Shown one piece after another: positions 6,681-51,343 of a stretch of DNA of 64,000 nt. A program made the translations under genes and the position numbers. The notes beneath the pieces are model-generated. The model saw nothing but the letters and a program-made list of their open reading frames with translations, was not told where the DNA came from and did no database searches. The stretch comes from Minisyncoccota bacterium (GTDB lineage Bacteria > Patescibacteriota > Minisyncoccia > Phycocordibacterales > UBA9973): positions 1,713 through 65,712 of the forward strand of contig DASTLQ010000008.1 of the NCBI GenBank assembly GCA_035714785.1, given 5' to 3'. Every line of letters begins with the position of its first letter. The stretch's first letter is position 1.

Positions 6681-6855
6681 GTGTAAGGGGTCCCCTTGCA
6701 TGTTATCCACAGGTAAGGGTGGTGGGTGTGGATAAAGTGTAAGGGGTCCCCTTACATGTTGGTGGGAAAGGGTCCACCTTCGCTAAGGGTCCGCCTTCGC
6801 CTCTGGCGAAGGTGGACCCTTAAAGGTGGACCCTTAAAGGGGTTCCTTTACACTT
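6681..6855. repeat. REP-like repeat cluster R2 (2 core units, 2 DnaA-box 9-mers, 2.5 copies of module B)
   Basis: GTGTAAGGGGTCCCCTTGCATGTTATCCACAGG...GTGTGGATAAAGTGTAAGGGGTCCCCTTACATG...AAGGGTCCGCCTTCGCCTCTGGCGAAGGTGGACCCTT. It lies between the htpX stop and the gatC start. Confidence 0.85.
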
Positions 6856-10096: not shown

Positions 10097-10143
10097 ATAA
10101 ATAATAAGGAATTAGGGGTAATACTTCTATTATAGCATGCTTA

Positions 10144-10224
10144 GGTGTAAGGGGTCCCCTTACACTTTATCCACACCCACCACCCTTACCTGTGGATAAC
10201 ATGTAAGGGGTCCCCTTGCATGTT
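10144..10224. repeat. REP-like repeat cluster R3 (2 inverted core units, 2 DnaA-box 9-mers)
   Basis: GGTGTAAGGGGTCCCCTTACACTTTATCCACACC...CCTGTGGATAACATGTAAGGGGTCCCCTTGCATG. It lies between the lemA start and the secF stop. Confidence 0.85.
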
Positions 10225-11128
10225 AGGCTTTACGTTTGTGCTCTTCCCACATCACGAGGACTGGGGAGGCGAAGAATATCGATGAATATACGCCGAAGAT
10301 CATACCTGTAGTAAGCATGAATGCAAAGTATTTTGTAGCAGGTGGTCCAAAGAAAAATAGGGACAGCAATACCAATATAGTAGTGAGCGAAGTGAGTATG
10401 GATCGAGCATAAGACTGATCCAAGCTCTTGCCTACAATTTCTTCAAATTTTGAATGATGTTTTATATTGTCTTCGTTTCGAAGATTTTCTCGAATACGAT
10501 CAAAGACCACAATAGTGTCAGCAATAGAAAGACCGACGATGGTAAGCGCAGCTACCACGAATAATGAATCCGCCTCTACTCCAGTAAATTTAGAAAGTAA
10601 TGAAAATACTCCAGCTGCAATGATCACGTCGTGCAAAAGTGCAGCGATAGCGATCAGTCCGTATTTCCATGAAGAAACTGGATTAGAAACTTTTCTGAAA
10701 GCAAATGCGATAAAGCATACCACCGCGAAAGAAGAAAGGATGATGGCGGTAATGGCTTTTCTTGAAAGCTCTCTTCCTGTTGATGGACCGATGGAATTAA
10801 AGCTAGTCTCTACAAGCTCATACTCATCGCCTGCAGACATGACCGAAAGCAATGCTTGGTGTTCATCATCTGTGAGATCGCGAGTCTTTACGATATATCC
10901 TGATTCCCCTGTAGGCTGAAGCACCACGGAACCAAGACCAAGTAGCGCAAGCTCACTGTTTAAATCAACTTGTAGAGGTCTCTCCCCTACATAGGTTACT
11001 TCGGTAAGTGCACCTCCTTTAAAGTCTATCCCCATTTTTATTCCAAATACGGAAATAGAGATGATAGACAAAATCACTAGTATGATAGAGATAGCGACAA
11101 ATATTTTTTTGTGTTTAATTACAAACAT
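10223..11128 (-). CDS. secF: Protein translocase subunit SecF
   Basis: The 301-aa ORF has six TM helices and the conserved FKGG.. N-terminal region. It lies downstream of secD. Confidence 0.85.
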   Translation of the reverse strand: MFVIKHKKIFVAISIILVILSIISISVFGIKMGIDFKGGALTEVTYVGERPLQVDLNSELALLGLGSVVLQPTGESGYIVKTRDLTDDEHQALLSVMSAGDEYELVETSFNSIGPSTGRELSRKAITAIILSSFAVVCFIAFAFRKVSNPVSSWKYGLIAIAALLHDVIIAAGVFSLLSKFTGVEADSLFVVAALTIVGLSIADTIVVFDRIRENLRNEDNIKHHSKFEEIVGKSLDQSYARSILTSLTTILVLLSLFFFGPPATKYFAFMLTTGMIFGVYSSIFFASPVLVMWEEHKRKA

Positions 11129-11130: not shown

Positions 11131-12495
11131 TTATTTTTTAAATATTCTTGCATCGAATAAAAATCTAGCAACCTTTCCTTCTCCAATGAATGTCACCCCG
11201 TATAGGAACAATCTTGAAATCACTACGGCAGCAAACATAGAGACCAGCACACCCATTCCAAGCGTCAGAGCAAATCCTTTGATGAGGGAACTTCCAAACC
11301 AGAAAAGGATCACTGATGTAATCAGGGTAGAAATATTTGAATCACGAATAGAAAGCCATGCTCGGGCAAAACCACCATTGATGGAATCAAGAATGCTCTT
11401 TTCTTCTGCAAGCTCTTCTTTCATGCGCTCAAATATAAGGATATTGGCGTCGACGGCTATACCGAGGGAAATAATAAATCCAGCGATGCCAGCTGCCGTC
11501 AAGGTGACTGGAATCAATTTATATAAAGCTAAAATAACTGCCACATATACCGCCAAAGAAATGACGGCTAGTAATCCTGGCAGGCGGTACCAAAGAATCA
11601 AAAAGATTGCGATTGCAAGAAATCCAATTATAGCTGCTTTCACTCCAGCCTCTACTGCATTTTCTCCAAGGATTGCTCCGATGGTCTGCCTAGAAACCAA
11701 AGTAATCGGCACAGGCAAAGCTCCGGAATTTAATCTTCCGACAAGCGTCTTCGCTTCTTCAGGAGTAAACTGTCCAGAAATTTGTGCTACTCCATCTAAG
11801 ATTGGTTCGTTTACTGTTGGTACTGAAATTGGTGCACCATCTAGATAGATTGCGACTGGCTTTCCGACATTTGCTTTTGTAATTTCTGCGAAGAGTTCTT
11901 TTCCTCTTTCATCAAATTCAATTCCAACCAAAGGCTGTCGTGTTGTAGGATCAAATTGTAAATTTGCTCTCTTTAAAAATCTTCCAGTAAGCTCCGTAGA
12001 AACAAATTGAGAATTTGGGTCTATTGTTAGCTCTCCTTCTTCGGTGATAGTGTAGTTTAGTTCTGTTCCCTCTGGGGCTTCAATTTTAAATTCCAAAATA
12101 GGAGTCTCACCGATCATGGCCGCTGCTTGGTCTACGTCAGTCACTCCGGGTAAGTCTACAATAAGTTTTTCTCCACCTCCTTCTACAAATCCGCCTCGCT
12201 GTATTTGAACGAGTGGCTCAGATACTCCAAAAAGATTTACTCGGCGCTCAATCACGTCTCTTAAGGCGTCCATTGATTCGCCAATTTCTCCGGGAGCTAC
12301 TTCTGAAACGTCCGCTTCATAAACAAGATGACTTCCGCCCGAAAGGTCTAGTCCTAAGCGCAAAGGAAAATTGTGAAAGAAAGAAGTCTCATTTTCATAG
12401 TTCGTGTTTGCCCGTGGTTCTGATTTAAATACAAAAAATGCCACTGCGATTCCGAGCAGTAATATGATGAGCGCTCCTAGTCTTTTTTTCCACAT
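11131..12495 (-). CDS. secD: Protein translocase subunit SecD
   Basis: Large periplasmic domain followed by six C-terminal TM helices. The start is trimmed to MWKKRLGALII, because the ORF's N-terminal extension runs into the REP repeat. Confidence 0.85.
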   Translation of the reverse strand: MWKKRLGALIILLLGIAVAFFVFKSEPRANTNYENETSFFHNFPLRLGLDLSGGSHLVYEADVSEVAPGEIGESMDALRDVIERRVNLFGVSEPLVQIQRGGFVEGGGEKLIVDLPGVTDVDQAAAMIGETPILEFKIEAPEGTELNYTITEEGELTIDPNSQFVSTELTGRFLKRANLQFDPTTRQPLVGIEFDERGKELFAEITKANVGKPVAIYLDGAPISVPTVNEPILDGVAQISGQFTPEEAKTLVGRLNSGALPVPITLVSRQTIGAILGENAVEAGVKAAIIGFLAIAIFLILWYRLPGLLAVISLAVYVAVILALYKLIPVTLTAAGIAGFIISLGIAVDANILIFERMKEELAEEKSILDSINGGFARAWLSIRDSNISTLITSVILFWFGSSLIKGFALTLGMGVLVSMFAAVVISRLFLYGVTFIGEGKVARFLFDARIFKK

Positions 12496-12544
12496 ACAGG
12501 TTGATATTACGACATTTTTTAAACGTTCGCAAGTTTTGGGCCAA

Positions 12545-12682
12545 CATGCAAGGGGTCCCCTCCAAGGGTCCACCTTCGCCAGAGGCGAAGGTGGACCCTT
12601 TAACATGCAAGGGGACCCCTTACACTTTATCCACACCCACCCCCCTTACCTGTGGATAACATGCAAGGGGTCCCCTTACACC
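12545..12682. repeat. REP-like repeat cluster R4 (3 core units, module B, 2 DnaA-box 9-mers) in the divergent secD/SIMPL intergenic region
   Basis: CATGCAAGGGGTCCCCTCCAAGGGTCCACCTTCGCCAGAGGCGAAGGTGGACCCTTTAACATGCAAGGGGACCCCTTACACTTTATCCACACC..CCTGTGGATAACATGCAAGGGGTCCCCTTACACC. Confidence 0.85.
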
Positions 12683-12702
12683 TAAAGTGCTATAATATAA
12701 GG

Positions 12703-13428
12703 ATGGAAAATAATACTACACGTACATATACGCTTTTTGCCCTCATTTTGGGACTGTCTTTGGTTTTAAGTGCGATTATTGGCTCAATGACTTTTTATAA
12801 ACTCCGCTCGATGGATTATATTTCTTCTACTGGCTCCGCTAAGAAAGCAGTGGTCTCCGACAAGGTGAAATGGTCTTCAAACATCAGCCGACCAGTTCGA
12901 ACTTCTACTATCAAAAGCGGATACGCAAACATGGAAGCAGATTTAAAGGCGGTGCGCAATTTTCTTACCACTAACGGAATTCCGGCAGAGTCAATCGAAA
13001 TCTCCCCTGTCTTTATGCACGAAGTATATGAACAAAATCCTGGAATAGAAAAAGCCTATACTCTCACTCAGAGTATCGAAGTAAGCTCTACCGATGTTGC
13101 AAAAATTGCAGAGCTTGCAAAAAACACTAGCTCTCTAGCAAACTCGGGCATGATCTTTTCTACAAACTCATTAGAATACTTTTACTCCCAACTTCCTGAA
13201 GCTCGTGTAGAACTCTTGGCTGCAGCAGTGGAAGATGCAAAAAATCGTGCAGGCCAAATAGCTAAGGCAGGAGGAAAGAAAATTGGTACTCTAAAATCTG
13301 CATCATCTGGCGTAGTGCAAGTAATGTCTGAAAACTCTATCGAAGTTTCAGACTACGGTATGTACGATACTTCTAAAATAAACAAAGAAATAATGGTGAC
13401 AGTAAAGGCTAGCTTCGAGATTCGCTAG
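12703..13428 (+). CDS. SIMPL (DUF541) domain protein
   Basis: N-terminal TM helix and a SIMPL-like periplasmic domain. The start is trimmed to MENNTTRTY, because the ORF's 5' extension reads through the repeat. Confidence 0.65.
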   Translation: MENNTTRTYTLFALILGLSLVLSAIIGSMTFYKLRSMDYISSTGSAKKAVVSDKVKWSSNISRPVRTSTIKSGYANMEADLKAVRNFLTTNGIPAESIEISPVFMHEVYEQNPGIEKAYTLTQSIEVSSTDVAKIAELAKNTSSLANSGMIFSTNSLEYFYSQLPEARVELLAAAVEDAKNRAGQIAKAGGKKIGTLKSASSGVVQVMSENSIEVSDYGMYDTSKINKEIMVTVKASFEIR

Positions 13429-16762: not shown

Positions 16763-16790
16763 AGGGTTATTGTATCATAATTTAGAATTT

Positions 16791-16952
16791 CATTACTCTG
16801 TCCAAAAGACTTACGTAGAAGAGGTGTTTAGTTCCCCTACCTCAAAGACTTTTGTATATAGACTTTTCATTACTCTGTCCAAAAGACTTACGTAGGAGAG
16901 GTGTTTAGTTCCCCTACCTCAAAGACTTTTGTATATAGACTTTTCATTACTC
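16791..16952. repeat. 77-bp tandem repeat (2.1 copies) immediately 3' of 5S rRNA
   Basis: The units start at 16791, 16868 and 16945 (partial) and differ by one mismatch. Each unit begins CATTACTCTGTCC, which mimics the boundary at the 3' end of 5S. Confidence 0.8.
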
Positions 16953-17062
<110 letters not shown>

Positions 17063-17422
17063 ACAATAATGAAATTGCGATATATATACTGTCGCTCCCG
17101 CCGTGGCGGACGCGTTATGATTTTCAAATTTCTTAACAGGAATCGAACAATTAGTACTTCTCAGCTCTACACATTACTGTGCTTACACTTAAAGCCTATC
17201 AACCTGATCATCTCTCAGGGTTCTTAACGATTCCTAATCTTGAAGCTGGCTTCCCTCTTAGATGCTTTCAGAGGTTATCCATTCCCGACATAGCTACCGA
17301 GCAATCCACTTGGCAGTAGAGCTCGTACACCAGAGGTCAGTTCACGCCGGTCCTCTCGTACTAAGCGCAAATCTTCTCAAGAATCAACGAGTGCAGTAGA
17401 TAGGAGACCAACCTGTCTCACG

Positions 17423-17748
17423 CATCTACGTCCATAATTACTTATGGGATTGGACTATAGCTTCATCTTTCTTCAGTTTTTACTTGAATAAGACTGCTGA
17501 CGTTTAGTCTCTACGGGTTCCGCCTACTGGCAGATTCCCTCGGTATTGCCCTCACTTTCGTGATCGGGTTTCACCGATACTAGTCAGCTTCACGTCACGC
17601 ATTTCTGTGTGACGCCGCCGTGATGTGCTAAAGCAAATGAATGCCATGCACGTGGTTGTTTTCGATTTATAACAGTCTAATTCGTTCTGAATTATTTTCC
17701 TCTGTAGGGTTCAGATCGTCAAAACCACAAGTTTGTCTTATGATCTCA
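17423..17748 (-). other. Group I intron (ORF-less) in 23S rRNA at the E. coli position ~2593 equivalent
   Basis: Exon junction GGGTTCAGACCGT|intron|CGTGAGACAGG. The intron follows U and ends in G. R-like (GTAGAGACTAAACG) and S-like (GAAGCTATAGTCC) elements are present. Confidence 0.65.
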
Positions 17749-18411
17749 ACGGTCTGAACCCAGCTCGCGTACCTTTTTAATTGGCGAACAGCCAAACGCT
17801 TGGGAGCTTCTCCACCCCCGCGCTAAGGTGAGCCGACATCGAGGTGCCGAACTCCGCCGTCGATATGAACTCTTAGGCGGAACTAGCCTGTTATCCCTAG
17901 AGTAGCTTTTATCCGTTAATCTAAACCCGCATCTAATGCGAAATTTCGGTTCACTTAGTTCTGGTTTCCCACCTGCTCGGGAAGTACCCCTTACAGTCAA
18001 GCCATCTTATGCCTATACACTATCGGCACGGTTTCCATTCGCGCCTAGATGACCTTTAAACCCCTCCTTTACTTTTTAGGAGGGTACAGCCCCAGTAAAA
18101 CTATCCACCAGATACTGTCTCAGTCCGTTTTTTCCGTACTGGTTAGAACATGCCTTCAAAAAGAATGGTATTTCACTGACGAGTAGATAACAGCCGAAAC
18201 CGCTAACATCAGACCTCTCCCATCTATTCTACGCAGTTTAAAAACATGCTCAATATCAAGTTATAGTAAAGCTTCTAGGGTCTTTTCGTCTAACTGCACT
18301 TAACCGGCATCTTCACCGGTATTGTATTTTCACCGAGCTGGTCCCCGAGACAGTTTCCCAGTCATTACACCATTCGTGCGCGTCGGAACTTACCCGACAA
18401 GGTATTTCGCT

Positions 18412-18625
18412 CTTCTATACCCAAGAAGGACTCTATCTTCATCCTCTCCGAAGAGGTGGGATGCTTGACGCTGGTCTCTCGTTAGCCAAGTTTTGACTGT
18501 CTCTACATTACTCTAGAGCAGGTAGCATTCGAATAGTCTAATAATTTTTTAATTTAATTGTTTACTTTTTTCTACAACAGTCCCAGTCATTCCGCGCTCG
18601 TCTGCCATAGGCAAACAAATGCAGA
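18412..18625 (-). other. Group I intron (ORF-less) in 23S rRNA at the E. coli position ~1917 equivalent
   Basis: Exon junction GGTCCTAAGGT|intron|AGCGAAATACCTTGTCGGGTAAG. The intron follows U and ends in G. R-like (TGTAGAGACAGTC) and S-like (GAAGATAGAGTCC) elements are present. Confidence 0.6.
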
Positions 18626-18660
<35 letters not shown>

Positions 18661-19394
18661 CAGGGCTTATATCAGTCTGCATATCTCCATCTTGCGACAA
18701 AGAAACACCGCCGATATTTGACCTTCTGGCATTGGTCAGGTGTCACCCCCTATACATCCTCTTACCGAGTTCGCAGGGAGCTGTGTTTTTGGTAAACAGT
18801 TGCCAGGAATACTTTCGCTGCGGCCGGCATTTCTGCCGGCAAGCCTTATCCCGAAGTTACGGCTGCTTTTTTGCCGAGTTCCTTGGGGACCTCTCACTCG
18901 TTCGTCTTGGTCTACTCGACCTGATCACCTGTGTCGGTTTGCGGTACGGATTCCATATTTTTAAGTTTAGAGATTTTTCTTGGAAGCGTGCTTTGCGAAA
19001 TTGCCCTCGGCCTAAACCGAAAACTTTTCACTTCTCTTGGATTCGCTATTTAAAGCAGCGCGCGGATTTTCCTACGCATCATCCTCAAGAAGCAAACTTA
19101 AATCCATTAATAAGCGACGCATACTACACTCCGTCCTCTCATCACAAAATATGGAAGTGCAGAAATATTAATCTGCTCTTCCATCGGGTGCGGATTTCTC
19201 CATCCCCTTAGGCCCGACTAACCCTTGGCTGATTATCATTACCAAGGAAACCTTGATCTTTCGACGTGATGCGTTCTCAGCATCATTGCGGTTACTTGTG
19301 CCAACATTCTTACTTCCACACGCTCCATAGGCCCTCACGGGTCCTACTTCACAGCAGAGTGGAACACTCTCCTACCACTCGTGAACTTCATAGA

Positions 19395-19705
19395 GGAGCC
19401 GATATTTTTTTATATCGGCTTTCAAACAATTTCGGGGTTCTCCGCAACATCAATCCACACGTTCAGAACACCATATTTAACGTATTGGAGAACCCAAAAG
19501 AACAAATCGTGCCCAGGAAGCGGGATTAAAACCCGACAAAGACCTTCGTCTTTGTATGCTTTGTTTTAACAAAAATTTTTTAAATTAGTTTTTATTTAAA
19601 CATCGCCTGATTGTTACTACTACCGGCTCAATATATCATACACGATATACCAGTACGTAACCCTCCTGGGCTGGCCACCCACCTTGGATGCGAAACTCTT
19701 CCTCT
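19395..19705 (-). other. About 310-nt insertion in 23S rRNA at the helix-45-equivalent region (IVS-like, bounded by a ~16-bp long-range stem)
   Basis: It lies between conserved CCGAA.. and GGTAGGAGAGTGTTC. The flanks GAATTTCATAGAGGA / TCCTCTATGAAGTTC can pair with each other. No group I signatures were seen. Confidence 0.4.
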
Positions 19706-20409
19706 ATGAAATTCACGAATCCTCACATTCGGTACTATGCTTAGCCCCAATTATTTTCGACGCAAAATCTCTGGATGAGTGAGCTGTTACGCTATCTTTA
19801 AAGGATGGCTGCTTCTAAGCCAACCTCCTCATTGTCAGAGAAATTTCACCTTCTTGTCTTGCACTTAGCATAGATTTAGGGACCTTATATTGAGATCCGG
19901 GCTGTTTCCCTTTTCACCAATGGAGCTTAGCCCCCACGGTGTAACTGCCGCATTCTGGCTTCTGGTATTCGGAGTTTGATAGGTTTCGCGAGATTGCTCC
20001 CTGTCGAAACCTTCCAGTGCTCTACCCCCAAAAGAAACATGCGACGCTAGCCCTAAAGCTATTTCGGAGAGAACCAGCTATTACCAGGTTCGATTAGCTT
20101 TTCACTCCTTACCACAAGTCATCCCAACGCGTTGTACGACGAACGGGTTCGGACCTCCATAAGTCTTTCGACCTACTTCATCCTGCTCATGGCAAGCTCA
20201 CCTGGCTTCGGGTCTTATGCATGATATATTTATTTCGCGCTATTAACACTCGGTTTCCCTACGGCTCTGCGGTTCTCCCGCTTAACCTACAACATGCATA
20301 AACTCGTTGGCTCATTCTTCAATAGGCACGCTGTCGCAGATATAAATACCTGCTCCAACTCCTTGTAGACATACGGTTTCAGGTCTATTTCACTGCCCTA
20401 ATCGGGCTT

Positions 20410-20446
<37 letters not shown>

Positions 20447-21202
20447 ATCTGTTAGAGTATTTAGCCTTAGCGGTTAGTTCCGCTGGATTCCCCCCGGCCA
20501 TTCGTGTCCTGGGGTACTCAAGAACGGCAATAAAAGAGATAAATTATTTTCGCTTACGGGCCTATCACCCTCTATGGAACCGCTTTCCAGCAGTTTCAGC
20601 TAATAATTTATTTTTTTACTCTTCTAGTAATCTACATTGCCGCCTTACAACCCCCAAATATTGCTACTTGGGTTTGGGCTCTTTCCTTTTCGCTCGCCGC
20701 TACTTAGGAAATAATTTTTATTCTCTTTTCCACCTGGTACTGAGATGTTTCACTTCCCAGGGTGCGCTCTCTGAATCAAGTTCAGAGTTATTGAGGTTTG
20801 CTCAATAGGGTTTCCCCATTCGGAGATCTCCGGATATATTGGTTGCTAGGCACCTCCCCGGAGCTTATCGCAGCTATGCCACGTCCTTCATCGCCTCTAA
20901 CAGTCTAGGCATCCACCGTACGCCCTTAATTTCCTGTTAAGAAATCTGAAAATCATAATTTTCATTTAGCTTTCTTTTCCGACCGCTCGGCATAAGAAAG
21001 CTGTTCTACCTACCGACATAAAGACCCCTTGGAAAGATTCATATCTTTACAAAAGAAATTGTCGTAGTAGCTTTAAGTTTTCAATCTTCAATCCGTTTCG
21101 GCAAACAAAAAACCGCCTTGTGGGCGGCTAAAAGAAAAAAACTTCTCTTTAGCGCCGCCTTTTGAGTTTCGTGTTTTTCGTTATTGTCATACTGATTGGG
21201 CT

Positions 21203-21296: not shown

Positions 21297-21340
21297 GCAA
21301 GGGGTCTAGGTGTAAGGGGTCCCCTTGCATGTTATCCACA
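21297..21340. repeat. REP-like repeat R5 (1 core unit plus DnaA-box 9-mer)
   Basis: GGTGTAAGGGGTCCCCTTGCATGTTATCCACA. Confidence 0.85.
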
Positions 21341-21347
21341 TATTTGA

Positions 21348-22116: not shown

Positions 22117-22698
22117 TCAAGGTCTTTTGAGTGCTTGTGTGGATAACTCTTTGGCGGACCACACGACCTCGTGAGGGAAATCGAGGATATCTCTGACCAA
22201 TTTGTCGTACATATCCAATCTATATACAAATTCTTTAGTATCAAAAACAACGTAAGAAAGCTCAACTCCGATTTCTGCTTCAAGTCTTTTCACACCTTCT
22301 TCCACTTTCTTGGTCTTGATTTTATCTCCTACCACTAAAATATCAGCCCGAGTGTCTTTGTCTTTTATAAATACACCAGACACAATCAAGAGCTTTATCT
22401 TTCCTGATTTTCGGAAACTTTCGATTATGTTTTGCTTGTCGTAGCTTCCGGCATTTATTAATAAATCCTCAAATTCAGTTGTATAAGGGAAAGCTAGATT
22501 GAAGGTCCAACCTGCAGACATCTTTTTTACAAAATTTGCCGACGAAAGAAGAGCGAGCTCTTTGCGGACCACCGAAAGATTCACCCTACTTCTACTTACT
22601 ATATCTTTATTGGTAAAAGCTTTGCTTTTGTTTTGCAAAAAAAGCCTCATCATTTTTACCCTAGACGGGCTTCCTAGTATTTTTCCTAATATTTCCAT
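22117..22698 (-). CDS. Hypothetical winged-HTH-like protein
   Basis: The N-terminal segment ILGSPSRVKMMRLFLQNKSKAFTNKDIVSRSRVNLSVVRKELALL has HTH character. The start is trimmed to MEILGKILG, because the 5' extension reads through repeat R6. Confidence 0.45.
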   Translation of the reverse strand: MEILGKILGSPSRVKMMRLFLQNKSKAFTNKDIVSRSRVNLSVVRKELALLSSANFVKKMSAGWTFNLAFPYTTEFEDLLINAGSYDKQNIIESFRKSGKIKLLIVSGVFIKDKDTRADILVVGDKIKTKKVEEGVKRLEAEIGVELSYVVFDTKEFVYRLDMYDKLVRDILDFPHEVVWSAKELSTQALKRP

Positions 22699-22717
22699 AT
22701 GCTCTATATTATACCTC

Positions 22718-22752
22718 GCATGTAAGGGGTCCCCTTGCATGTTATCCACAGG
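22718..22752. repeat. REP-like repeat R6 (1 core unit plus DnaA-box 9-mer)
   Basis: CGCATGTAAGGGGTCCCCTTGCATGTTATCCACAGG. Confidence 0.85.
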
Positions 22753-22767
22753 TTGCAAAAATTAAAG

Positions 22768-24480
22768 TTAATGCTGGTAAAATCCTCTAGCTTCTGAATC
22801 CGGTATAAGAATAAGTTTTACTTCCCTATTTTTACATAATTCGATTATTTTTTCATCATTTACTGACCCGCTCGTAGAAAAAATCGTCTTTATTCCTCGG
22901 TCTATTAATACTTCTGGAGCATCAGGAAATGGGAAGAAACTGTCGCTGTATGCCGTGGCTCCTGTGAGGTCGGCTGTTTGTGTGCCCTCCTGTGCGCTTT
23001 GGGCGCTTTGGGCGCTCTCTGCGCTTTGGGCCTCTCCCATACTTGCTCGAAATCCGGCTGACTCATCGGCGCGAGAGATTGCAAGCTTTGCCGCTCCCAC
23101 TCTGTCCTGCTGGCCGACTCCGTTTCCTAGTAGCTGTCCATCTTTTACTAGTGTAATGGTGTTGCTGTTTGAAGTACTACCTACTGCCCAAGCGAGCACT
23201 GCATCTTGGGGCAAGGCGTTTAGGGGTAAGGGGTCCCCTTGCATGTTTGCGTGTAAGGGGTCCCCTTGCATGTTATCCACAGGTACGAAGGTGTAGTTTG
23301 GTTGCTCTAAAAATCCACCTCGGACATATCGGAATCTTTTGGCTATATCGAGTGAGTCCTGCCCCGCCTTTTCAATCTTTGGATTTACTACCAAACGGCA
23401 CTTCCCCTTTTTGCGAGAAAGTATTTCGATTGCTTCTTCGCTAAAAGAAGGCGCGGCCACCATGTCGAGCAATCTCCTCCCCTCCGCTACATATTTATGA
23501 ATCAGGTCTTCTGCAATCTTTTCATCAACTGGAAAATTTACCATCACCATCCCGCCAAAGATTGCGCGTAAATCGCCAGTGAGCATTTTTTCCACTGCCA
23601 CTCCGCCATCAGCATCTGACACTCCTGCCCCACATGGATTTCCATGCTTTACTCCAATAGCCACAAACGGAACTTGCGAAAAGTTTTTTTCAAACCCCGC
23701 TCCGATATGGGTGACTGTCTGGATCATCCGATCAAGATCACATATATTGTTGTAGCTCATGGCACTGCCTCCGACCTGCTTCCAATTGTGCACCGCTAGT
23801 GCATCCTTGCTTCCTAGATTTTCAAAGAGAGCCGCCGGCTTCTGATATGCATTTTCCCCGTAAGCACATTCGTAGTTTCTTTTTCCAAAAATTGCTTTGT
23901 ATTCACCTCCACTATGATACTCTCCAGAAATGGAACAGTACCTTCCCACTACCGCTTCTGCCTTGGCAGAAAGTGCGTTTAGAAAATTTTCTTTCTCTGG
24001 TTCACCAGCTTGTAGCCATTCGATTACTCTTGGTCGATCGATAGGGTCGCAAATAGTGATCCTTCCTCCTTTGGCCGAAGCCCTGATCATGGTCGGTCCG
24101 CCAATGTCTGTTTTCTCTATCACTGATTCACGAGTGGCGTCCGGATTTGCAACCTCATCTTCTAAGGGATAGAAATCTACACACACCATATCGATGCGAG
24201 AGATTCCATATTTTTCCAAGTCCGCAATATGTTCCGGAGTATCGAGCGCTAAAAGTCCCCCGTGAATTTTTGGATGCAAGGTCGCTACTCGGTGTCCCAA
24301 TATTGCCGGCATGCCCGTGATCTCCTCAACGTCCGTCACCGCTATTCCATTTTCCGAAAGATATTTTGCCGTCCCTCCCGAAGAGATTATTTTCCAGCCC
24401 ATAGATACTAGGGCCTTGGCAAAATCTTCTAGACCATTTTTATTATAAACAGAAATGAGGGCCGTTTTTTGGTGTTGCAT
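22768..24480 (-). CDS. purH: Bifunctional AICAR transformylase/IMP cyclohydrolase, carrying an in-frame REP-derived insertion and a SAQ nonapeptide-repeat insertion
   Basis: The N-terminal MGS-like domain is MQHQKTALISVYNKNGLEDFAKAL. The C-terminus matches PurH (..SDSFFPFPDA..). Repeat R7 is translated as VDNMQGDPLHANMQGDPLPLNALP. The 9-bp tandem GCGCTTTGG x4 encodes SAESAQSAQSAQ. Confidence 0.9.
   Translation of the reverse strand: MQHQKTALISVYNKNGLEDFAKALVSMGWKIISSGGTAKYLSENGIAVTDVEEITGMPAILGHRVATLHPKIHGGLLALDTPEHIADLEKYGISRIDMVCVDFYPLEDEVANPDATRESVIEKTDIGGPTMIRASAKGGRITICDPIDRPRVIEWLQAGEPEKENFLNALSAKAEAVVGRYCSISGEYHSGGEYKAIFGKRNYECAYGENAYQKPAALFENLGSKDALAVHNWKQVGGSAMSYNNICDLDRMIQTVTHIGAGFEKNFSQVPFVAIGVKHGNPCGAGVSDADGGVAVEKMLTGDLRAIFGGMVMVNFPVDEKIAEDLIHKYVAEGRRLLDMVAAPSFSEEAIEILSRKKGKCRLVVNPKIEKAGQDSLDIAKRFRYVRGGFLEQPNYTFVPVDNMQGDPLHANMQGDPLPLNALPQDAVLAWAVGSTSNSNTITLVKDGQLLGNGVGQQDRVGAAKLAISRADESAGFRASMGEAQSAESAQSAQSAQEGTQTADLTGATAYSDSFFPFPDAPEVLIDRGIKTIFSTSGSVNDEKIIELCKNREVKLILIPDSEARGFYQH
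22990..23035. repeat. 9-bp tandem repeat (about 4.5 copies, GCGCTTTGG / GCGCTCTCT) inside purH
   Basis: The sequence is read directly. It is in frame and encodes an (SAQ)n-like stretch. Confidence 0.75.
23224..23283. repeat. REP-like repeat cluster R7 (2 core units plus DnaA-box 9-mer) inside the purH CDS
   Basis: GGTAAGGGGTCCCCTTGCATGTTTGCGTGTAAGGGGTCCCCTTGCATGTTATCCACAGG. This is the same two-unit variant, in the same strand and frame, as in gatA. Confidence 0.85.
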
Positions 24481-24496
24481 GTACGTATAATAACAC

Positions 24497-24609
24497 AAAA
24501 ACCCCTGAATACTTCTTGAGAAAAGCCTTCGGAGGCGCGACGGCGCCGGAGAGAGAAAATTTTCAGCAGAAAATTTTCGTGCTTTTCAAAAGAAGTATTC
24601 AGGGGTTTT
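24497..24609 (-). terminator. Long structured inverted repeat / intrinsic terminator between rplL and purH
   Basis: An outer stem of about 26 bp (AAAACCCCTGAATACTTCTTGAGAAAAG / CTTTTCAAAAGAAGTATTCAGGGGTTTT) encloses inner hairpins. On the minus strand it is followed by TTTTTGTGTT. Confidence 0.5.
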
Positions 24610-25826: not shown

Positions 25827-28697
25827 TTAGGGGGAATATGTCGATTCGTAAACGGGAAGGGGTTTCAGAATCATATTAAATCCGCCGGAATAGGGAGGGA
25901 AAGGAGAATCTTCGATCGAAAACCATTCACCCGAAGGGAAAGTTTGGAAGTGATTTTCTGAACTGTTCCACCCGACCCAAGTATTTTCATCTAAACTTTC
26001 CACCACCACTTCTTCGTAGCCCACGAGCTGTTCCCCTCTTCTAAGATAATACGTATACCCCGTCGCCTTCCAAGTAATCGAAACGCTATATATTTCTCCA
26101 TCCATATTATTTTGAGGATTATTTTTGAGAAGCGAAAGTGTAACATCAGAAGATTCGAATCCTTTTTGCGGATCGCGATTAAAGATACCTCGCTCCAAGA
26201 AATTTTCACTGCCCGTCCCTGATTCTGCAGTTTTTATTTTAAAATCTTGGCGAAGAAAACCATTTCTATAACTATTTTTCCAATCATATACATATGACCC
26301 ATCAAAAGCCCAAATCTGCCAATATCGACCTAACTCATCTACACCAAAGGAATATTTAGGAATATATGTATAGGTCGGAGAAGTGACGGTAAATTTAAAT
26401 TTCGTATCTGTTGTCGGAAAACGAAAAGTCTCGTCATCGTCGGTAGAAGTAAAATAATAATCATATTCTCCCGCTTCAAATGTTCCATCATATCCGTACA
26501 TTTCACCGTTAGAAAAATCTCCGTCACTAAATATACCTTCTCCCGATGTTATTCTTTCCATAGAAAAATCTGAAAGTAGGGATGAATTTAAATTTTCCGT
26601 ATGCAACATTACTTGCTCGGGTTCTCTATTAAGTGGACATGTATAAATCACTCGAAAAGAAAAAATTGTTTGGTTTTCATTTCCTTCCAGAATATTTAAT
26701 CCATCGTTTTCATATGGACCGGAAGTGGTCGTGCTCAAATGTGGCAATAATGGCAGAGGAAGTCCAATGTATACAGCAAAAGGTTCCATCATCATACTAC
26801 CCCCTCCTTCTAAGCCCGGAGAAGCATACGGTATTCCAATCCAATCCCCCGAAGGAAAAAATTTAAACGAATTAAATGACCCGTCCCAACCCACCCACAT
26901 ATTTTCATCAACTCCTGCAATGTCTGTATGTCCTGTAGCATGCACAGTATTATCATCCGACAAATTAGTAATTGTATAGGTGTAGCCAAGAGCATCCCAC
27001 AGAATATCAACTAAGTATGTAGCGTCAATCATGTTATTTTGCGGACTATATTCAAGGGAAGAAATAGTAAGGTCAGTGCGAAGAAAGCCCAGCCTAGGAT
27101 CACCGTTTTTAAATATTCCTCGTTCCAAGCACTGCGAACACCAGAATCCTCTGTATGTTTGAAGTTTGAATTTCTCATTTAAGTATCCATTTATATAAGT
27201 ATCGGACCAGTCATATATATTTGAACCATTAAAAGCCCAGACTTGCCAATCACGTCCGTCTCCGTTCCCTGTTCCAAATTTATATTTATCAATATATTTG
27301 ATCTGTCCCGGAATTGGCGGATCACTTTCCTCCCCGCCGCCATTTCCTCCTTCTTCGTTTCCGTTTTCTTCTTCATTTCCATTGTTCCCCCCTTCTTCAT
27401 TGCTTTCTTCTTCGTTTCCATTTCCTTCGGAATCGTTGTCATCCTCTTCTTCTTCAGAATGGTTGTCCTCCTCATCAGGTGGAATCACGACAGGGTCTAC
27501 GACCTCACTCACAGGTGAAGGAGAAACGTTCCGAGAGCTCCTGTTTCTACTTGGATTCAAAACAACAGAATCTGGTTTCGAAGGATCTATGTTTTCACTT
27601 GTGCTAGAAGTGCTAAGATTTGCGGCTTGATTCCAGATGGGTGCAATTTGAAAAGTTTGAGGAGGTGTGGAGGGAGAGATAGTTTGCTGAGTCGGTTCCG
27701 CCGATTTTTGCTTATCAGTTTGATCAGTAACAAGATTGTCGTATGCAATTACAGCGACCGATTCGTTTGGAATTTTCTCCGCCGTACTAGCTAGCTTGCT
27801 AAAAATCGAGAGCGCACCTTCTGCAATCTTCTGTGACAAATAGTCCGCCCCTTTCACCGCAGTTTTGATTATTGCTTTTCCCGCTAGCGCATATGGATCT
27901 GCAAGAAAAAAGAATCCCTCGAGAATACGATGCCCAAGCGTAGGATCGGGAGGAGCAATGCAATAATTTTCTTTCAATTGAACAGAATTATTGGAAAGTT
28001 CTCCGAGCGAATTATATACACCTCTTATAATGTCTCCTTTTAAATATTTTAGGTAAACATTTCGGAAATTGTGTCCATTAGAATCATCGCCAGGGTCTAA
28101 AGTTACTTTTGCATTTGCAGGCAACACGCTTACGATCTTTCCCGTCCGAATTAGATTTATGACCTTGTCAGTATCTGAAGTAAGATACTTTCCATCTCCG
28201 GCAACTCGACTAGTAGGAGTGGCTATTCCAAACAATCGTATAGACTCAGCGGGGATTCCTCCAGACCGATTGGCCACAGTGTCGTAGAAACTATTAGCAT
28301 AAAAATTCCCTTGAGAATGGCCCACCAATAATACCTTCTGAGTGGTAATTTTTTTACTTGCCTCTTTTAAAATTTCAACTAGGTCAAAATCACGCACCTC
28401 CCTTTCGTCAAAATACTTTTGATATGCGGCAGCAAAAAGATCAGTGACGCCTCCTAAGTGAGTTGGATTATGAAGATAATCAACCTTAATTTCCTCAGTA
28501 TTACGATTAAAAGGCAAAATTTTTCTGAGTCCTTCCATGTTGGCTACCGCTTCCTTTTCAGTAGTAAAAATGCCATTGATAGTGACTACCGTAAAATCAT
28601 CCGGTGAGCAATACTGTGCAAACGCTTCCCCAAATCCAGCTAAAAATAAAAAGATGAAAAACAAAACTGTTATCAAAATTTTATTGAATGTTCTCAT
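25827..28697 (-). CDS. Large secreted protein: N-terminal alpha/beta-hydrolase (lipase/esterase-like, GHSQG nucleophile elbow), poly-acidic E/N/G-rich linker, and two tandem ~190-aa C-terminal repeat domains
   Basis: Signal peptide, then VLLVGHSQGNFYANSFYD. An EEEDDNDSEGNGNEEESNEEGG low-complexity linker follows. Two paralogous domains begin KYKFGTGNGDGRDWQVWAFNGSNIYDW.. and KYSFGVDELGRYWQIWAFDGSYVYDW.. Confidence 0.55.
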   Translation of the reverse strand: MRTFNKILITVLFFIFLFLAGFGEAFAQYCSPDDFTVVTINGIFTTEKEAVANMEGLRKILPFNRNTEEIKVDYLHNPTHLGGVTDLFAAAYQKYFDEREVRDFDLVEILKEASKKITTQKVLLVGHSQGNFYANSFYDTVANRSGGIPAESIRLFGIATPTSRVAGDGKYLTSDTDKVINLIRTGKIVSVLPANAKVTLDPGDDSNGHNFRNVYLKYLKGDIIRGVYNSLGELSNNSVQLKENYCIAPPDPTLGHRILEGFFFLADPYALAGKAIIKTAVKGADYLSQKIAEGALSIFSKLASTAEKIPNESVAVIAYDNLVTDQTDKQKSAEPTQQTISPSTPPQTFQIAPIWNQAANLSTSSTSENIDPSKPDSVVLNPSRNRSSRNVSPSPVSEVVDPVVIPPDEEDNHSEEEEDDNDSEGNGNEEESNEEGGNNGNEEENGNEEGGNGGGEESDPPIPGQIKYIDKYKFGTGNGDGRDWQVWAFNGSNIYDWSDTYINGYLNEKFKLQTYRGFWCSQCLERGIFKNGDPRLGFLRTDLTISSLEYSPQNNMIDATYLVDILWDALGYTYTITNLSDDNTVHATGHTDIAGVDENMWVGWDGSFNSFKFFPSGDWIGIPYASPGLEGGGSMMMEPFAVYIGLPLPLLPHLSTTTSGPYENDGLNILEGNENQTIFSFRVIYTCPLNREPEQVMLHTENLNSSLLSDFSMERITSGEGIFSDGDFSNGEMYGYDGTFEAGEYDYYFTSTDDDETFRFPTTDTKFKFTVTSPTYTYIPKYSFGVDELGRYWQIWAFDGSYVYDWKNSYRNGFLRQDFKIKTAESGTGSENFLERGIFNRDPQKGFESSDVTLSLLKNNPQNNMDGEIYSVSITWKATGYTYYLRRGEQLVGYEEVVVESLDENTWVGWNSSENHFQTFPSGEWFSIEDSPFPPYSGGFNMILKPLPVYESTYSP

Positions 28698-29293: not shown

Positions 29294-29393
29294 TATTAGA
29301 GAAAATTACTTATAAAATAGAAAAAGACCAGACCTCGGCGGATCTAGTCACTCATCTTTCGATTATATTCTTTGTGTCCCCAACCTGTCAAAA

Positions 29394-29480
29394 CTGTGGA
29401 TAACATGTAAGGGGTCCCCTTACACGCAACATGCAAGGGGACCCCTTACCCCTTGCCGACCCTTACCCTTACCCTTGGCC
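29394..29480. repeat. REP-like repeat cluster R8 (2 core units, DnaA-box 9-mer, CCCTTACC tail) at the 3' flank of the RAYT gene
   Basis: CTGTGGATAACATGTAAGGGGTCCCCTTACACGCAACATGCAAGGGGACCCCTTACCCCTTGCC. Confidence 0.85.
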
Positions 29481-30161
29481 CTCGCCCAAACCCTCATGTG
29501 TATTAAACAAAAGCCATTCTTTTATAAAATCATTAAAGTCATCGACTTTTTCAAAATATTCCGGAAAAGCTCCTTTGTTAATAATTTCTTCTTCTTGATA
29601 ATTTTTCTGCTGGTAAATTAAATAGCTAGAATTTTGATAACTATTTAAATATCTCTCTGTCCTACGAATATCACTAATTCCGCTCTCTTTCCACTCTGGG
29701 TCAATTATTTTTACCGGATTTAAATGAATATAAGCAAATAAATATTTTAAGTATGTATCCGTGTTAACATGCTTCGCTTTAAATGCCCTCTCAAATACTG
29801 GCCCAGTCCTTTTGTGTTTTTTATTAAAATACATCGAATAGCCAGTAAGGAGCTTTAGCATAAATTGAGTTACTCCTCCTGGAATCTTTTCTTTTACTAA
29901 AATATGAAAGTGATTAGGCATGAGACAATATGCCCCTATGTCGACAAGTGTTCTTTTTCTGCGCACGAAAAATAGGTCAGAGAAAGTACGGCCGTTTTTG
30001 AAATGCCGAGCTATGTCTACAGAGTCTGAACTATTACACACATAGAGCAGAGCCTTAAATCTCAAATAATCCTTGGAATCGAGAAAAATCTCGTGCTTAT
30101 CCGTACCACGGTTGTATAAATGATAATATTCGTTGATAGAAAAATTGATCTTCCGCTCCAT
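29469..30161 (-). CDS. REP-associated tyrosine transposase (RAYT; IS200/IS605-like Y1 HUH transposase family)
   Basis: An HUH motif (CLMPNHFHILV) and a C-terminal catalytic-Tyr motif (YLFAYIHLNPVK) are present, and the N-terminus (YHLYNRGTDKHEIF) matches the Y1 family pattern. REP clusters lie immediately on both flanks. Confidence 0.7.
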   Translation of the reverse strand: MERKINFSINEYYHLYNRGTDKHEIFLDSKDYLRFKALLYVCNSSDSVDIARHFKNGRTFSDLFFVRRKRTLVDIGAYCLMPNHFHILVKEKIPGGVTQFMLKLLTGYSMYFNKKHKRTGPVFERAFKAKHVNTDTYLKYLFAYIHLNPVKIIDPEWKESGISDIRRTERYLNSYQNSSYLIYQQKNYQEEEIINKGAFPEYFEKVDDFNDFIKEWLLFNTHEGLGEGQG

Positions 30162-30224
30162 ATTATATGGAAGATCGCGTCTCTCGTATCAAAAATTATA
30201 GCAAAACTAGTAACCAAAAAGAAA

Positions 30225-30313
30225 GGTCCCCTCCACCTGTGGATAACATGCAAGGGGTCCCCTTACACTTTATCCACACCCTGTGGATAACATGCAAGGG
30301 GTCCCCTTACACC
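30225..30313. repeat. REP-like repeat cluster R9 (2 core units, 3 DnaA-box 9-mers) at the 5' flank of the RAYT gene
   Basis: GGTCCCCTCCACCTGTGGATAACATGCAAGGGGTCCCCTTACACTTTATCCACACCCTGTGGATAACATGCAAGGGGTCCCCTTACACC. Confidence 0.85.
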
Positions 30314-30317
30314 TTGA

Positions 30318-31085
30318 TCAAACCTTCGTCAAAATCTCAGGCTCATGGTCGGTGATTAGGACGGTGAGCTCAAAGTGAGCACTAGGCTTTCCGTCCGATG
30401 TACGAAATGTATACCCGTCGTGCTCTAGCACTACGTTTTTCTTGCCCATGTTTAACATCGGCTCAATTGCTATCACCATTCCAGGCACTAGCTTTTCACC
30501 TGTTCCTTTTTTCCCAAAGTTTGGCACAAATGGATCTTCGTGAATATATTTTCCTACTCCATGGCCTGCCAAGACATCTACTATTCCATATTTATGGGGC
30601 TTCACATATTTTTCAATTGCGTGTCCGATATCCCCCACCCTACCTCCGCCCACTGCTGCGTCTATCCCTACATGCATGGCCTCCTCTGTCACCTCCAAAA
30701 GTTTTTTCATAGCAGGACTAATCTTTCCTACTGGTACGGTGATAGCCATATCGGTAAACATCCCTTTGTGTTTTAGTCCGAGATCTATGGTGATATTCTC
30801 TCCCTCTTTCAGTATCCTGTTTTTACTAGGAATCCCATGCACTACTTCTTCTCCCACTGACACACAGAGACTAGCTGGAAAAGCGCTCCTGGCTCCCTCA
30901 GGCTTGTAGTTTAAAAAAGCTGGCTCATCCCCTCCTTTCTTTATTAGCGAGTAGGCATAGTCATCTAGCTCTTTAGTAGAAACTCCAGGCACTACCTTTT
31001 CTTTTACTTTGTGCAAGATGGTCGCCAGTCTCCTGCCTCCCTCGCGAAGTATTTCAATTTCTTCTTTTGTTTTTATATAAATCAT
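30318..31085 (-). CDS. map: Methionine aminopeptidase type I
   Basis: The 255-aa ORF carries the conserved metal ligands (..DLGLKHKGMFTDMAITVPVG.., HGVGKYIHEDP, IAIEPM). Confidence 0.9.
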   Translation of the reverse strand: MIYIKTKEEIEILREGGRRLATILHKVKEKVVPGVSTKELDDYAYSLIKKGGDEPAFLNYKPEGARSAFPASLCVSVGEEVVHGIPSKNRILKEGENITIDLGLKHKGMFTDMAITVPVGKISPAMKKLLEVTEEAMHVGIDAAVGGGRVGDIGHAIEKYVKPHKYGIVDVLAGHGVGKYIHEDPFVPNFGKKGTGEKLVPGMVIAIEPMLNMGKKNVVLEHDGYTFRTSDGKPSAHFELTVLITDHEPEILTKV

Positions 31086-32415: not shown

Positions 32416-32985
32416 ATGAAAAAAGAAATCATCTCTATCACCGGTACTTTAGGAAGCGGGAAATCTAGCACCGCCGACCGCGTGGCCCAAAATTTAGGAT
32501 ATCAAAGATTTTCTTCTGGGGATTTTATGAGAAAAATCGCTCTCGAAAGGAGGCTTTCCATAAACGAACTATCTGCCCAAGCTGAAAATGACCCGACTAT
32601 AGATGTGAGTATTGACGACGAGGTACGAAAGGTTGGCGAGATGGATAAAATCGTGATTGATTCCCGCCTAGCGTTTCATTTTATTCCCAACTCTTTCAAA
32701 GTATATTTGGACCTCCCCCCTGAAATCGCCAAGGAAAGAATTTTGAACAACATCAAAGAAAATGCTCTCCGCCGACAAAGCGAAAGCTCCGAAAATCCCG
32801 ACGAGATTTTTCATAAAATAAATGAACGTCTTGAGAGTGAAAAGAAAAGGTACAAAGATATATATGGCATCACAAATCACACAGACAAGAGCAATTTTGA
32901 TATAGTAATAGACACAAACAAAAACAACCTCGATGAGGTTGTTAAAATCGTGCTTTCTGAATACCAAAAGTGGCTCAACTCCTAG
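32416..32985 (+). CDS. cmk: Cytidylate kinase (archaeal/short type)
   Basis: A P-loop (ISITGTLGSGKSS) is present, and the size and LID region match short-type CMP kinases. Confidence 0.65.
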   Translation: MKKEIISITGTLGSGKSSTADRVAQNLGYQRFSSGDFMRKIALERRLSINELSAQAENDPTIDVSIDDEVRKVGEMDKIVIDSRLAFHFIPNSFKVYLDLPPEIAKERILNNIKENALRRQSESSENPDEIFHKINERLESEKKRYKDIYGITNHTDKSNFDIVIDTNKNNLDEVVKIVLSEYQKWLNS

Positions 32986-33053
32986 GGTAAGGGGACCCCT
33001 TGCATGTTATCCACAGGTAAGGGTGGTGGGTGTGGAAAGGGTCCCCTTGCATG
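32986..33053. repeat. REP-like repeat cluster R10 (2 core units plus DnaA-box 9-mer) between convergent cmk and secY
   Basis: GGGTAAGGGGACCCCTTGCATGTTATCCACAGGTAAGGGTGGTGGGTGTGGAAAGGGTCCCCTTGCATG. Confidence 0.85.
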
Positions 33054-33058
33054 TGCAC

Positions 33059-51342: not shown

Positions 51343-51343
51343 T

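Follow-up and report, generated by a model that had tools for sequence, protein, structure and literature searches.

Repetitive extragenic palindromic (REP) elements tagged by GTAG or CGTC are mostly intergenic, with a minority lying wholly inside open reading frames (ORFs), in frame (Di Nocera, De Gregorio, Rocco 2013, PMC3733652). According to that study more than half of the intragenic REPs are dimers encoding 20–30 residues, sometimes two per gene and in several species; they are found in known housekeeping proteins, where they were argued to be neutral inserts in loops or linkers, and the GTAG REPs are associated with REP-associated tyrosine transposase (RAYT) genes flanked by repeats. 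A transposase gene flanked by repeats is the defining layout of the REP-RAYT systems (PMC2817692, PMC3333891, PMC3733652). The Rickettsia palindromic elements (RPEs; Ogata et al. 2000, cited in PMC3733652 and PMC3184786) are likewise in-frame palindromic repeats occurring in many functional protein genes, with a tolerated peptide; they measure about 105–146 bp and are confined to Rickettsia, RPE-4 and RPE-6 are CGTC-tagged, and no dedicated transposase is known for them. Here we analyze a stretch of 64,000 nucleotides (the window; positions 1,713 to 65,712 of contig DASTLQ010000008.1, assembly GCA_035714785.1) from an uncultured bacterium of the Paceibacterota, a lineage of the candidate phyla radiation (CPR), in which a 66-nt palindromic repeat of a family termed here REP-A lies in frame within purH, and a second copy lies within gatA. 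With a probability of roughly 0.8, the purH segment is a lineage-specific copy of the REP or REPIN (REP doublet forming hairpin) type, belonging to a REP-RAYT system and persisting as tolerated selfish DNA. An in-frame, tolerated REP within a gene is of a kind already known; what is new is the CPR host and the presence of one 9-mer tag, TGTGGATAA, on different hairpins in related genomes. The two genes and their inserts are as follows:

22768-24498, minus strand: purH, encoding the bifunctional AICAR formyltransferase / IMP cyclohydrolase; a 576-codon ORF
23218-23283, minus strand: REP-A dimer in purH; 66 nt, two palindromic units, in frame
4929-6386, minus strand: gatA, encoding Glu-tRNA(Gln) amidotransferase subunit A (Pfam Amidase, 3.6e-151)
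5577-5634, minus strand: REP-A dimer in gatA, encoding NMQGDPLHANMQGDPLPL(HLK), without the TGTGGATAA box
5634-5670, minus strand: palindrome of a second family, REP-B, in gatA; sense strand AAGGGTCCACCTTCGC-AGA-GCGAAGGCGGACCCTTT, encoding KGPPSQSEGGPF; abuts the REP-A dimer

The identity of both genes is clear. The purH ORF contains the Pfam domains MGS (2.9e-18) and AICARFT_IMPCHas (2.8e-47), and its product matches the PurH structure 4EHI of the PDB (4.5e-65) and is 100% identical to the NCBI protein VFQ59_01275 from a metagenome-assembled genome (MAG) of Candidatus Paceibacterota (83,675-bp contig); the deposited protein has 570 aa, its start lying 6 codons inside the window ORF. The best solved relative of the gatA product is GatA 3H0L (4.7e-134).

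On the sense strand the purH dimer reads CC-TGTGGATAA-CATGC-AAGGGGACCCCTT-ACACGCAAACATGC-AAGGGGACCCCTT-ACCCCTAAA and thus carries the TGTGGATAA box; the repeat DNA quoted in an earlier note on this locus, made from the sequence alone, is found on the plus strand at 23228-23283. The dimer encodes (P)VDNMQGDPLHANMQGDPLPLN, about residues 406-427 of PurH, and at the codon level the insert amounts to 21-22 codons placed straight after FVP-406 (translation across the insert ...FVPVDNMQGDPLHANMQGDPLPLNALPQD...; longer context ...QPNYTFVPVDNMQGDPLHANMQGDPLPLNALPQDAVLAWAV...). The earlier note had proposed an alignment to PurH orthologs as a check, and when 27 Paceibacteria relatives (64-71% identity) were aligned to the window PurH the segment proved to be an insertion: the gap between the invariant QPNYTFVP and LAWA spans 25 residues here and as few as 4-5 (for example, EIKN-K) in many of the relatives. 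PurH structures from outside the CPR have a linker of ~25 residues at the same place, which indicates that the site tolerates length change across bacteria. The window PurH was modelled with AlphaFold2 at a mean predicted local distance difference test score (pLDDT) of 73; a strand modelled with confidence (395-400) and a helix (431-442) enclose residues 406-427, which form coil with a pLDDT under 50, so that the insert is predicted to be disordered. A separate 9-nt tandem repeat, GCGCTTTGG, in 4.2 copies at 22994-23031 (purH codons about 490-502), encodes AQSAESAQSAQSAQ and marks a second indel hotspot of PurH, where relatives hold other inserts, several with a recurrent GGTFRxENF-like peptide.

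In GatA (translation across the insert ...GGPFNMQGDPLHANMQGDPLPLHLKR...; longer context ...DEMDGTSKGPPSQSEGGPFNMQGDPLHANMQGDPLPLHLKRIGIPRDF...) the place taken by the box in the purH copy is occupied by the REP-B palindrome, and the same pairing of REP-A with REP-B recurs intergenically at 12540-12625. An alignment of 119 GatA relatives (68-76% identity) showed that the loop region from DEMDSTS to IGxPRDFLKEG has 64 residues in the window protein against a typical 44 and a minimum of 41. Since 33 codons are derived from repeats (12 from REP-B and 21 from the REP-A dimer) and the loop is only ~21 residues longer than usual, the native loop has been largely replaced.

The copies in purH and gatA share 51 identical nucleotides and are 97% identical over 58 nt; as the earlier note had stated, they agree in their orientation with respect to the gene and in reading frame. 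Its further statement that both genes carry the same peptide stands for the 18 residues of NMQGDPLHANMQGDPLPL, which are common to PurH and GatA, and not for the full 24 quoted, as the VD and NALP ends differ. The NMQGDPL peptide was not found in any of the 27 PurH or 119 GatA relatives, among which both insertions map to hypervariable loops that are indel hotspots. Both flanks of each insert continue the conserved protein in frame, and the loops are variable among relatives. The view that the insertions are tolerated and not disruptive is upheld. At the codon level neither of the two inspected sites shows a direct duplication flanking the insert, and the elements are hairpins and not segments bounded by terminal inverted repeats, which sets them apart from miniature inverted-repeat transposable elements with their target-site duplications.

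Repeats are a classic source of misassembly, and only one contig is known for each of the deposited proteins, which raises the question of whether metagenome assembly or binning put the repeat into the two genes by mistake. Apart from the in-frame continuation of both proteins on either side, an independent recovery of the locus speaks against this. The Logan assemblies yielded fragments of the window region (contigs L002 and L007), of which L007, a 6168-bp contig of run SRR10492801, is 99.95% identical to window 29423-23256 and runs from purH codon 406 into the repeat. The junction reads ...ACCTTCGTACC|TGTGGATAACATGCAAGGGGACCCCT, with the contig end falling within the repeat core, and the opposite end of the contig falls within the repeat adjoining a transposase gene (see below). 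Independent assemblies thus reach the repeats from unique coding sequence and break there, which makes misassembly unlikely; unrelated genomes in other assemblies also show the same phenomenon at the same loops. We therefore regard an artefact as extremely improbable.

The two genic inserts belong to an abundant family; the counts that follow pertain to the 64-kb window. With up to 3 mismatches allowed, a 20-mer core of the repeat has 32 matches, against 0.01 expected. REP-A comprises 30 cores of the form AAGGGG-N-CCCCTT grouped in 16 clusters, each unit being ~27 nt long with complementary arms of CATGC/GCATG or GTGT/ACAC, and the units are arranged singly, as inverted pairs resembling bacterial interspersed mosaic elements (BIMEs), or as tandem dimers with a period of 26-27 nt that fold as a single long hairpin. 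The units are hence palindromic as in REPs, and two of them join in a long hairpin as in REPINs. REP-B is found beside REP-A at three places. In keeping with the high copy number and mainly extragenic placement of REPs, 14 of the 16 clusters are intergenic although features cover 90.8% of the window, with only those in gatA and purH being truly genic (binomial P = 3e-13 against random placement); the family strongly avoids coding DNA. The repeats match none of the Rfam families. A scan of 185,579 species-representative genomes with an 18-mer of the repeat gave a single chance match, on a Dehalococcoidales contig, a 20-mer scan of the Joint Genome Institute (JGI) metagenomes gave zero matches, and the concatenated repeat peptides, which are too short for such a search, matched none of 5.8 billion proteins at E up to 10.

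A candidate for the mobilizing enzyme lies ~6 kb from the purH repeat. It came to light through the purH locus of a relative, L003 (GCA_031291825.1; PurH 67% identical), which contains a 221-aa gene with a Y1_Tnp match bracketed by the repeats of that genome; with this protein as query, the window ORF at 29469-30161 was recovered with E = 4e-30. The single transposase gene of the window and the repeats around it are as follows:

29469-30161, minus strand: RAYT-like Y1/HUH transposase gene, 230 aa
29398-29468, minus strand: REP-A dimer with TTATCCACA; abuts the transposase stop codon, with a perfect TTGACA-18-TATAAT promoter next to it
30241-30329, minus strand: BIME-like inverted REP-A pair, located upstream of the transposase gene; its three boxes are arranged as TTATCCACA-GGG-TGTGGATAA ... 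TTATCCACA

The window protein matches the Pfam Y1_Tnp model with 31.3 bits (cut-off 23) and has the HUH motif as NHFHILV and the tyrosine motif as FAYIHLNPV (YxxxNP). It belongs to a large and divergent Y1 family with 15,866 cluster representatives at E up to 1e-3. A direct sequence search of the PDB with the window protein gave nothing relevant; the family profile has as its best PDB sequence match the E. coli TnpA-REP 4ER8. An AlphaFold2 model of the protein (pLDDT 92, predicted template modelling score 0.89) likewise has 4ER8, TnpA-REP with a REP hairpin, as its best fold match (E = 3.2e-6, probability 1.0), with the IS608 and ISDra2 transposases ranking lower. REP clusters flank the gene on both sides, the association typical of REP-RAYT systems, and the layout is the same in L003. 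Judging from homology and gene arrangement, the product of 29469-30161 is the presumed mobilizer of the REP family. The dimer at 29398-29468 is ~93% identical to the purH and gatA inserts and lies in the opposite orientation relative to transcription. The TTGACA-18-TATAAT that follows this repeat and its box is the only sigma-70 promoter matching the consensus at 12/12 positions between 21 and 31 kb. The earlier note had overlooked both this cognate transposase gene and the DnaA-box-like tag discussed below.

Set against the described systems, the locus shares with the intragenic REPs of PMC3733652 the palindromic structure, the mostly intergenic placement, the in-frame genic dimers and the repeat-flanked transposase gene. 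It differs from them in its host, the CPR/Patescibacteria being absent from the phyla listed there, in having the 9-mer TGTGGATAA (which contains GTGG) as its tag and not a GTAG or CGTC tetranucleotide, and in its targets, purH and gatA, where that study emphasizes replication and repair genes. With the RPEs it has in common a selfish palindromic repeat inserted in frame with a tolerated peptide; it departs from them in the 66-nt length of the insert, the lack of a CGTC tag and the cognate Y1 transposase adjoining a near-identical copy. Indeed, CGTC is absent from the REP-A and REP-B of the window, the units are of 27 nt, and the host is a member of the Paceibacterota. The E. coli REP/BIME elements and TnpA-REP (PMC3479197; PMC3333891; PMC2817692) resemble the present system in that an HUH/Y1 gene is bracketed by presumed substrate repeats, a hairpin has a conserved guide (here a putative one) 5' of its foot, and units are paired into BIME- or REPIN-like structures. 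However, the window protein is only 12% identical to TnpA-REP 4ER8 (profile E = 0.012), is 230 aa long with an extra conserved C-terminal helical part against the 165 aa of the E. coli protein, and is bracketed by repeats that are direct, not inverted, relative to the tag. Finally, Y1 subclass 2.1 (TIRYT) has a C-terminal module like Bac_DnaA_C, resembling DnaA domain IV (Quentin et al. 2018, PMC6006769), and so shares with our locus a possible link between a Y1 transposase and DnaA-box recognition; in TIRYT, however, the flanking repeats are unlike DnaA boxes, whereas the window repeats carry a perfect box and the transposase has no detectable Bac_DnaA_C. In the limited collection of literature that was searched we found no report of REP-RAYT systems in CPR/Patescibacteria or of DnaA-box-tagged REPs.

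The occurrence of one 18-residue peptide, encoded by 51 out of 51 identical nucleotides, in two essential enzymes might be taken to mean that the peptide, the RNA hairpin or the in-gene TGTGGATAA box was recruited and is maintained by selection, for instance as a shared interaction or regulatory motif, for translational pausing, or for binding of DnaA or the transposase inside the gene. The earlier note had leaned to repeated exaptation or tolerance of a particular stop-free variant, and had added that the element could hold mRNA structure within coding regions. The properties of the repeat itself do not favor these proposals. Three of the six frames of the full element 23218-23283 are free of stops. 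Two of them are antisense, and the sole open sense frame is the one in use; the two genic copies have the same frame because they have the same orientation. With only two genic cases, such a coincidence of orientation and frame is expected about 1 time in 3. Moreover, the same two-unit form lies intergenically beside the transposase gene at ~93% identity, so that no special variant is confined to genes. The frame in use is the only reading that is cysteine-free and clearly hydrophilic (0 Cys, grand average of hydropathy (GRAVY) -0.78); the two open antisense frames have 2-3 Cys and GRAVY values of +0.13 and +0.38.

As for RNA structure, the mRNA-sense strand of the purH copy folds at -22.7 kcal/mol (z = -2.0) and its complement at -35.7 kcal/mol (z = -4.7), a difference which arises from the asymmetry between G·U and C·A pairs. 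The dimer at 29398-29468, in the strong orientation, folds at -42.4 kcal/mol (z = -5.8), and the pair at 30241-30329 at -50 kcal/mol (z = -7.0). The genic copies are thus in the orientation with the weaker hairpin, which argues against selection for a strong RNA structure within the gene. It is plausible that this orientation has itself a selective reason, but two insertions are too few for proof.

Comparisons with other Paceibacteria throw further light on the matter. L003 shares the gene order of the window; its hairpin is another one (CCAGACGTTGGACGTCTGG...), and the tag on it is likewise TGTGGATAA. Its purH holds two in-frame copies at two other hotspots, NVHNTPDGGRLEATRRPTSG and VDNPPDVGRLEASRRPTSG, in which the tag is read V-D/H-N. 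In a second relative, L004, PurH has the insert SDVGRQEFGRPTSD, a palindromic repeat found three more times in the locus, and perfect inverted repeats of 18-22 nt within the coding sequence account for additional inserts of L004 and L005 (PurH) and of L006 (GatA); L005 and L006 also have Y1_Tnp genes. It appears common in Paceibacteria for the same permissive loops to be invaded by each genome's own palindromes, which supports the permissive nature of the sites and argues against a specific recruited peptide. Other odd peptides recur in PurH and GatA of further Paceibacteria (VGRQEFGRPTS, GGTFRxENF, FPQSLG..SATPSEKH, SSGPRFSGAPTPARPFR and GCPTPD), and one such peptide can appear in PurH and GatA of different genomes. 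The sequences of these shared peptides suggest widely shared repeat families that invade protein loops.

Two further points can be adduced for recruitment: the tag is read in one frame, V-D/H-N, in three purH inserts from two genomes, and the 9-mer, identical to the DnaA-box consensus, is kept in genomes whose hairpins differ. These are outweighed by several observations. Many relatives make do with only 4-5 (PurH) or about 12 (GatA) loop residues and the loops vary freely; the PurH insert is predicted to be disordered, and unrelated palindromes occupy the same sites in other Paceibacteria; stop codons dictate the frame, no box is present in the gatA copy, the mRNA strand gives the weaker of the two hairpins, and the peptide is present in none of the 27 PurH or 119 GatA relatives. 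A neutral reading was also reached for other intragenic REPs (PMC3733652). Accordingly, we consider recruitment very unlikely: tolerance under purifying selection explains the data, and nothing points to exaptation.

The close identity of the genic copies calls for separate comment, as it exceeds that between most other copies and is among the points that weigh against the reading of the inserts as tolerated REP-RAYT copies; it could reflect a recent common source or gene conversion. In the latter scenario a single insertion, or insertions of different REPs, would have been followed by conversion between dispersed repeats that made the genic dimers identical. The next closest copy, beside the transposase gene, differs from them by one indel and 2-3 mismatches, and the outer parts of the two inserts differ (box in purH, REP-B in gatA), which is compatible with patchwise conversion. 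However, two recent copies of one master element explain the identity equally well, conversion needs a pre-existing repeat in each gene, and no tracts were seen reaching into the flanking DNA; conversion would also leave the conclusion of tolerated in-frame loop REPs unchanged. We hold it to be unlikely. Other points on the same adverse side are that the transposase scores 43.3 bits against the NCBIfam model REP_Tyr_transpos (NF047646), short of the equivalog cut-off of 80, though this is its sole NCBIfam match; that its role in transposition is one that we infer; that the nearest PurH and GatA relatives are 70-76% identical, and hence provide no sister strain with an empty site, so that the age of the insertions is not datable; and that the inserts, or the in-gene TGTGGATAA box, may have a modest functional effect.

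The picture of tolerated selfish copies can be put together as follows. The elements, in which two ~27-nt palindromic units form one long hairpin tagged on one side by TGTGGATAA, would most likely be copied as single-stranded hairpins by the Y1/HUH transposase of 29469-30161, given its homology and the arrangement of the genes. Copies would accumulate between genes and those landing in coding DNA would be purged by selection unless they inserted into a disordered surface loop that the protein can spare, had a length divisible by three, and were read in a frame that has no stops and encodes a hydrophilic, cysteine-free peptide rich in Pro, Gly and Asp. The purH and gatA copies would be two survivors of this purging, with their common orientation entailing both the common frame and the weaker mRNA hairpin, and the peptide shared by PurH and GatA would be a by-product of tolerated selfish DNA and not a recruited module.

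The tag deserves attention in its own right. Perfect copies of the 9-mer TTATCCACA/TGTGGATAA number 24 between 6703 and 59431, 12 per strand, where by our own reckoning about 0.5 would be expected; REP units carry 23 of the 24, and most REP-A units are tagged on one side. Three genomes have it next to hairpins, which are of at least three different sequences, at a distance of 0-6 nt; among the relatives, L003 and L005 carry it on hairpins that differ. In known REPs a GT[AG]G guide precedes the hairpin foot on the 5' side by 0-2 nt (PMC6006769). TGTGGATAA contains GTGG, and counting AA/TT as part of the stem puts this motif 2 nt from the foot; the gatA dimer and REP-B are untagged. The simplest reading of these sequences is that the 9-mer would be an extended guide or recognition motif of the transposase. 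It also equals the high-affinity DnaA-box consensus, quoted as TT[AT]TNCACA in PMC6006769, which makes the boxes candidate DnaA-binding sites. Some Y1 transposases carry a DnaA-C-like domain (PMC6006769); the window protein and 56 family members gave no match to Bac_DnaA_C even at E up to 10. One perfect box, at 22138-22146 (L003 12386; L004 17213; L005 15448, 17284), falls in the last codons (ELSTQ) of a conserved gene that lies downstream of purH and encodes 194 aa, with the TATAAT of a mechanosensitive-channel gene following ~35 nt on, and is identical in DNA across genomes whose proteins are only ~70% identical. In L005 a transposase gene and its neighbor lie between two direct copies of a 37-nt segment starting with TTATCCACA; in the window, L003 and L004 the site holds just one conserved box. 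The duplication hints that the box might also serve as a transposase target. That the tag is a functional DnaA box spread by the REPs of Paceibacteria, at ~1 per 2.7 kb in the window and including inside purH, is in our estimation rather unlikely. If it were so, the REPs could jointly act like a datA locus in dispersed form, titrating DnaA or positioning it, or recognition of the box by DnaA or at the replication fork could help the RAYT family to target and copy hairpins; given also the recurrent invasion of the PurH and GatA loops by different palindromes, REPs would then act clade-wide in CPR bacteria, shaping protein loops as well as the control of replication.

The remaining REP clusters of the window, to which no strand was assigned, are as follows:

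6674-6870: REP-A pair with REP-B copies; intergenic, upstream of gatC
10138-10238: REP-A inverted pair with two boxes; intergenic, abutted by the secF stop codon (10223-10225)
12543-12698: REP-A/REP-B/REP-A cluster; intergenic, separating the divergently transcribed secD and SIMPL genes and preceding the true start of each
21303-21347: single REP-A unit with box; intergenic, just downstream of the mechanosensitive-channel gene
22713-22757: one REP-A unit carrying a box; intergenic, flanked by the purH stop on one side and by the TATAAT/ATG of the following gene on the other; the ORF 22117-22758 of that gene is over-extended 5'
32978-33055: REP-A pair; intergenic, between convergent genes
44795-44862: REP-A pair; intergenic
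45776-45834: REP-A unit with box; intergenic, followed by TATAAT and then ATG 6 nt on, upstream of the true bPH_2 start
49850-49925: REP-A pair; intergenic
51273-51344: REP-A pair with three boxes; intergenic
58041-58121: REP-A pair; intergenic
59382-59470: REP-A pair; intergenic; the Logan contig L002 terminates here (59468)

The copies at the 5' termini of four ORFs (22117-22758, 45235-45816, 11131-12636 and 12652-13428) were rejected as genic, these being 5' over-extensions in which the repeats precede the TATAAT and true ATG; SecD, for example, has 453 aa in L006 against a 501-codon ORF in the window. Likewise, ORF 30167-30355, with 62 codons built of repeats, is spurious as a gene. Consensus scans found no terminator-like site within the repeats, and promoters are not enriched overall, so that neither intrinsic termination nor promoter carriage describes the family. 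The frequent presence of a TATAAT just 3' of repeats may reflect the very short intergenic spacers. TATAAT boxes, some with an upstream TG, lie 6-9 nt before an ATG at 6676, 10130, 12690 (+), 22715, 29362-29391 and 45765, a spacing which suggests that many mRNAs of this organism may be leaderless.

Besides the genes already discussed, the window contains a 23S rRNA gene (17132-20939, minus strand) of 3808 nt against a 2925-nt model, with a group I intron inside (17431-17640, minus strand), followed by a 5S rRNA gene (16955-17060, minus strand); neither rRNA gene has a REP copy. A 77-nt unit repeated 2.2 times at 98% identity (16788-16957) lies directly 3' of the 5S rRNA gene. Group I introns have a second match, of 66 bits, at 3881-4088 (plus strand), beside ORF 3098-3802 and near tRNA-Met and tRNA-Asp. 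Direct repeats of 113 nt at 54490-54602 and 55278-55390 (also 56032-56069), 96% identical and 788 nt apart, lie between small paralogous-looking ORFs (54656-55288 and 55398-55991) and are unrelated to the REPs. Degenerate 18-21-nt tandem repeats are seen at 27323-27449 within ORF 25827-28697 (956 aa), the Logan copy of which has no recorded Pfam match.

Several implications follow from these observations. The identity of the 9-mer tag with the DnaA box offers a concrete and cheaply testable hypothesis. ORF extensions at the 5' end that contain repeats deserve trimming, and contig breaks in such MAGs will fall at repeats. The odd low-complexity peptides of Paceibacteria proteins (NMQGDPL..., GRLEA.RRPTSG, GGTFR.ENF and SSGPRFSGAPTPARPFR) are to be seen as the scars of repeats and not as motifs or assembly errors. 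More generally, the ultra-small genomes of CPR bacteria, of which ~91% is covered by genes in this case, still host an expanding REP-RAYT system, and their essential enzymes absorb its copies in dispensable loops.

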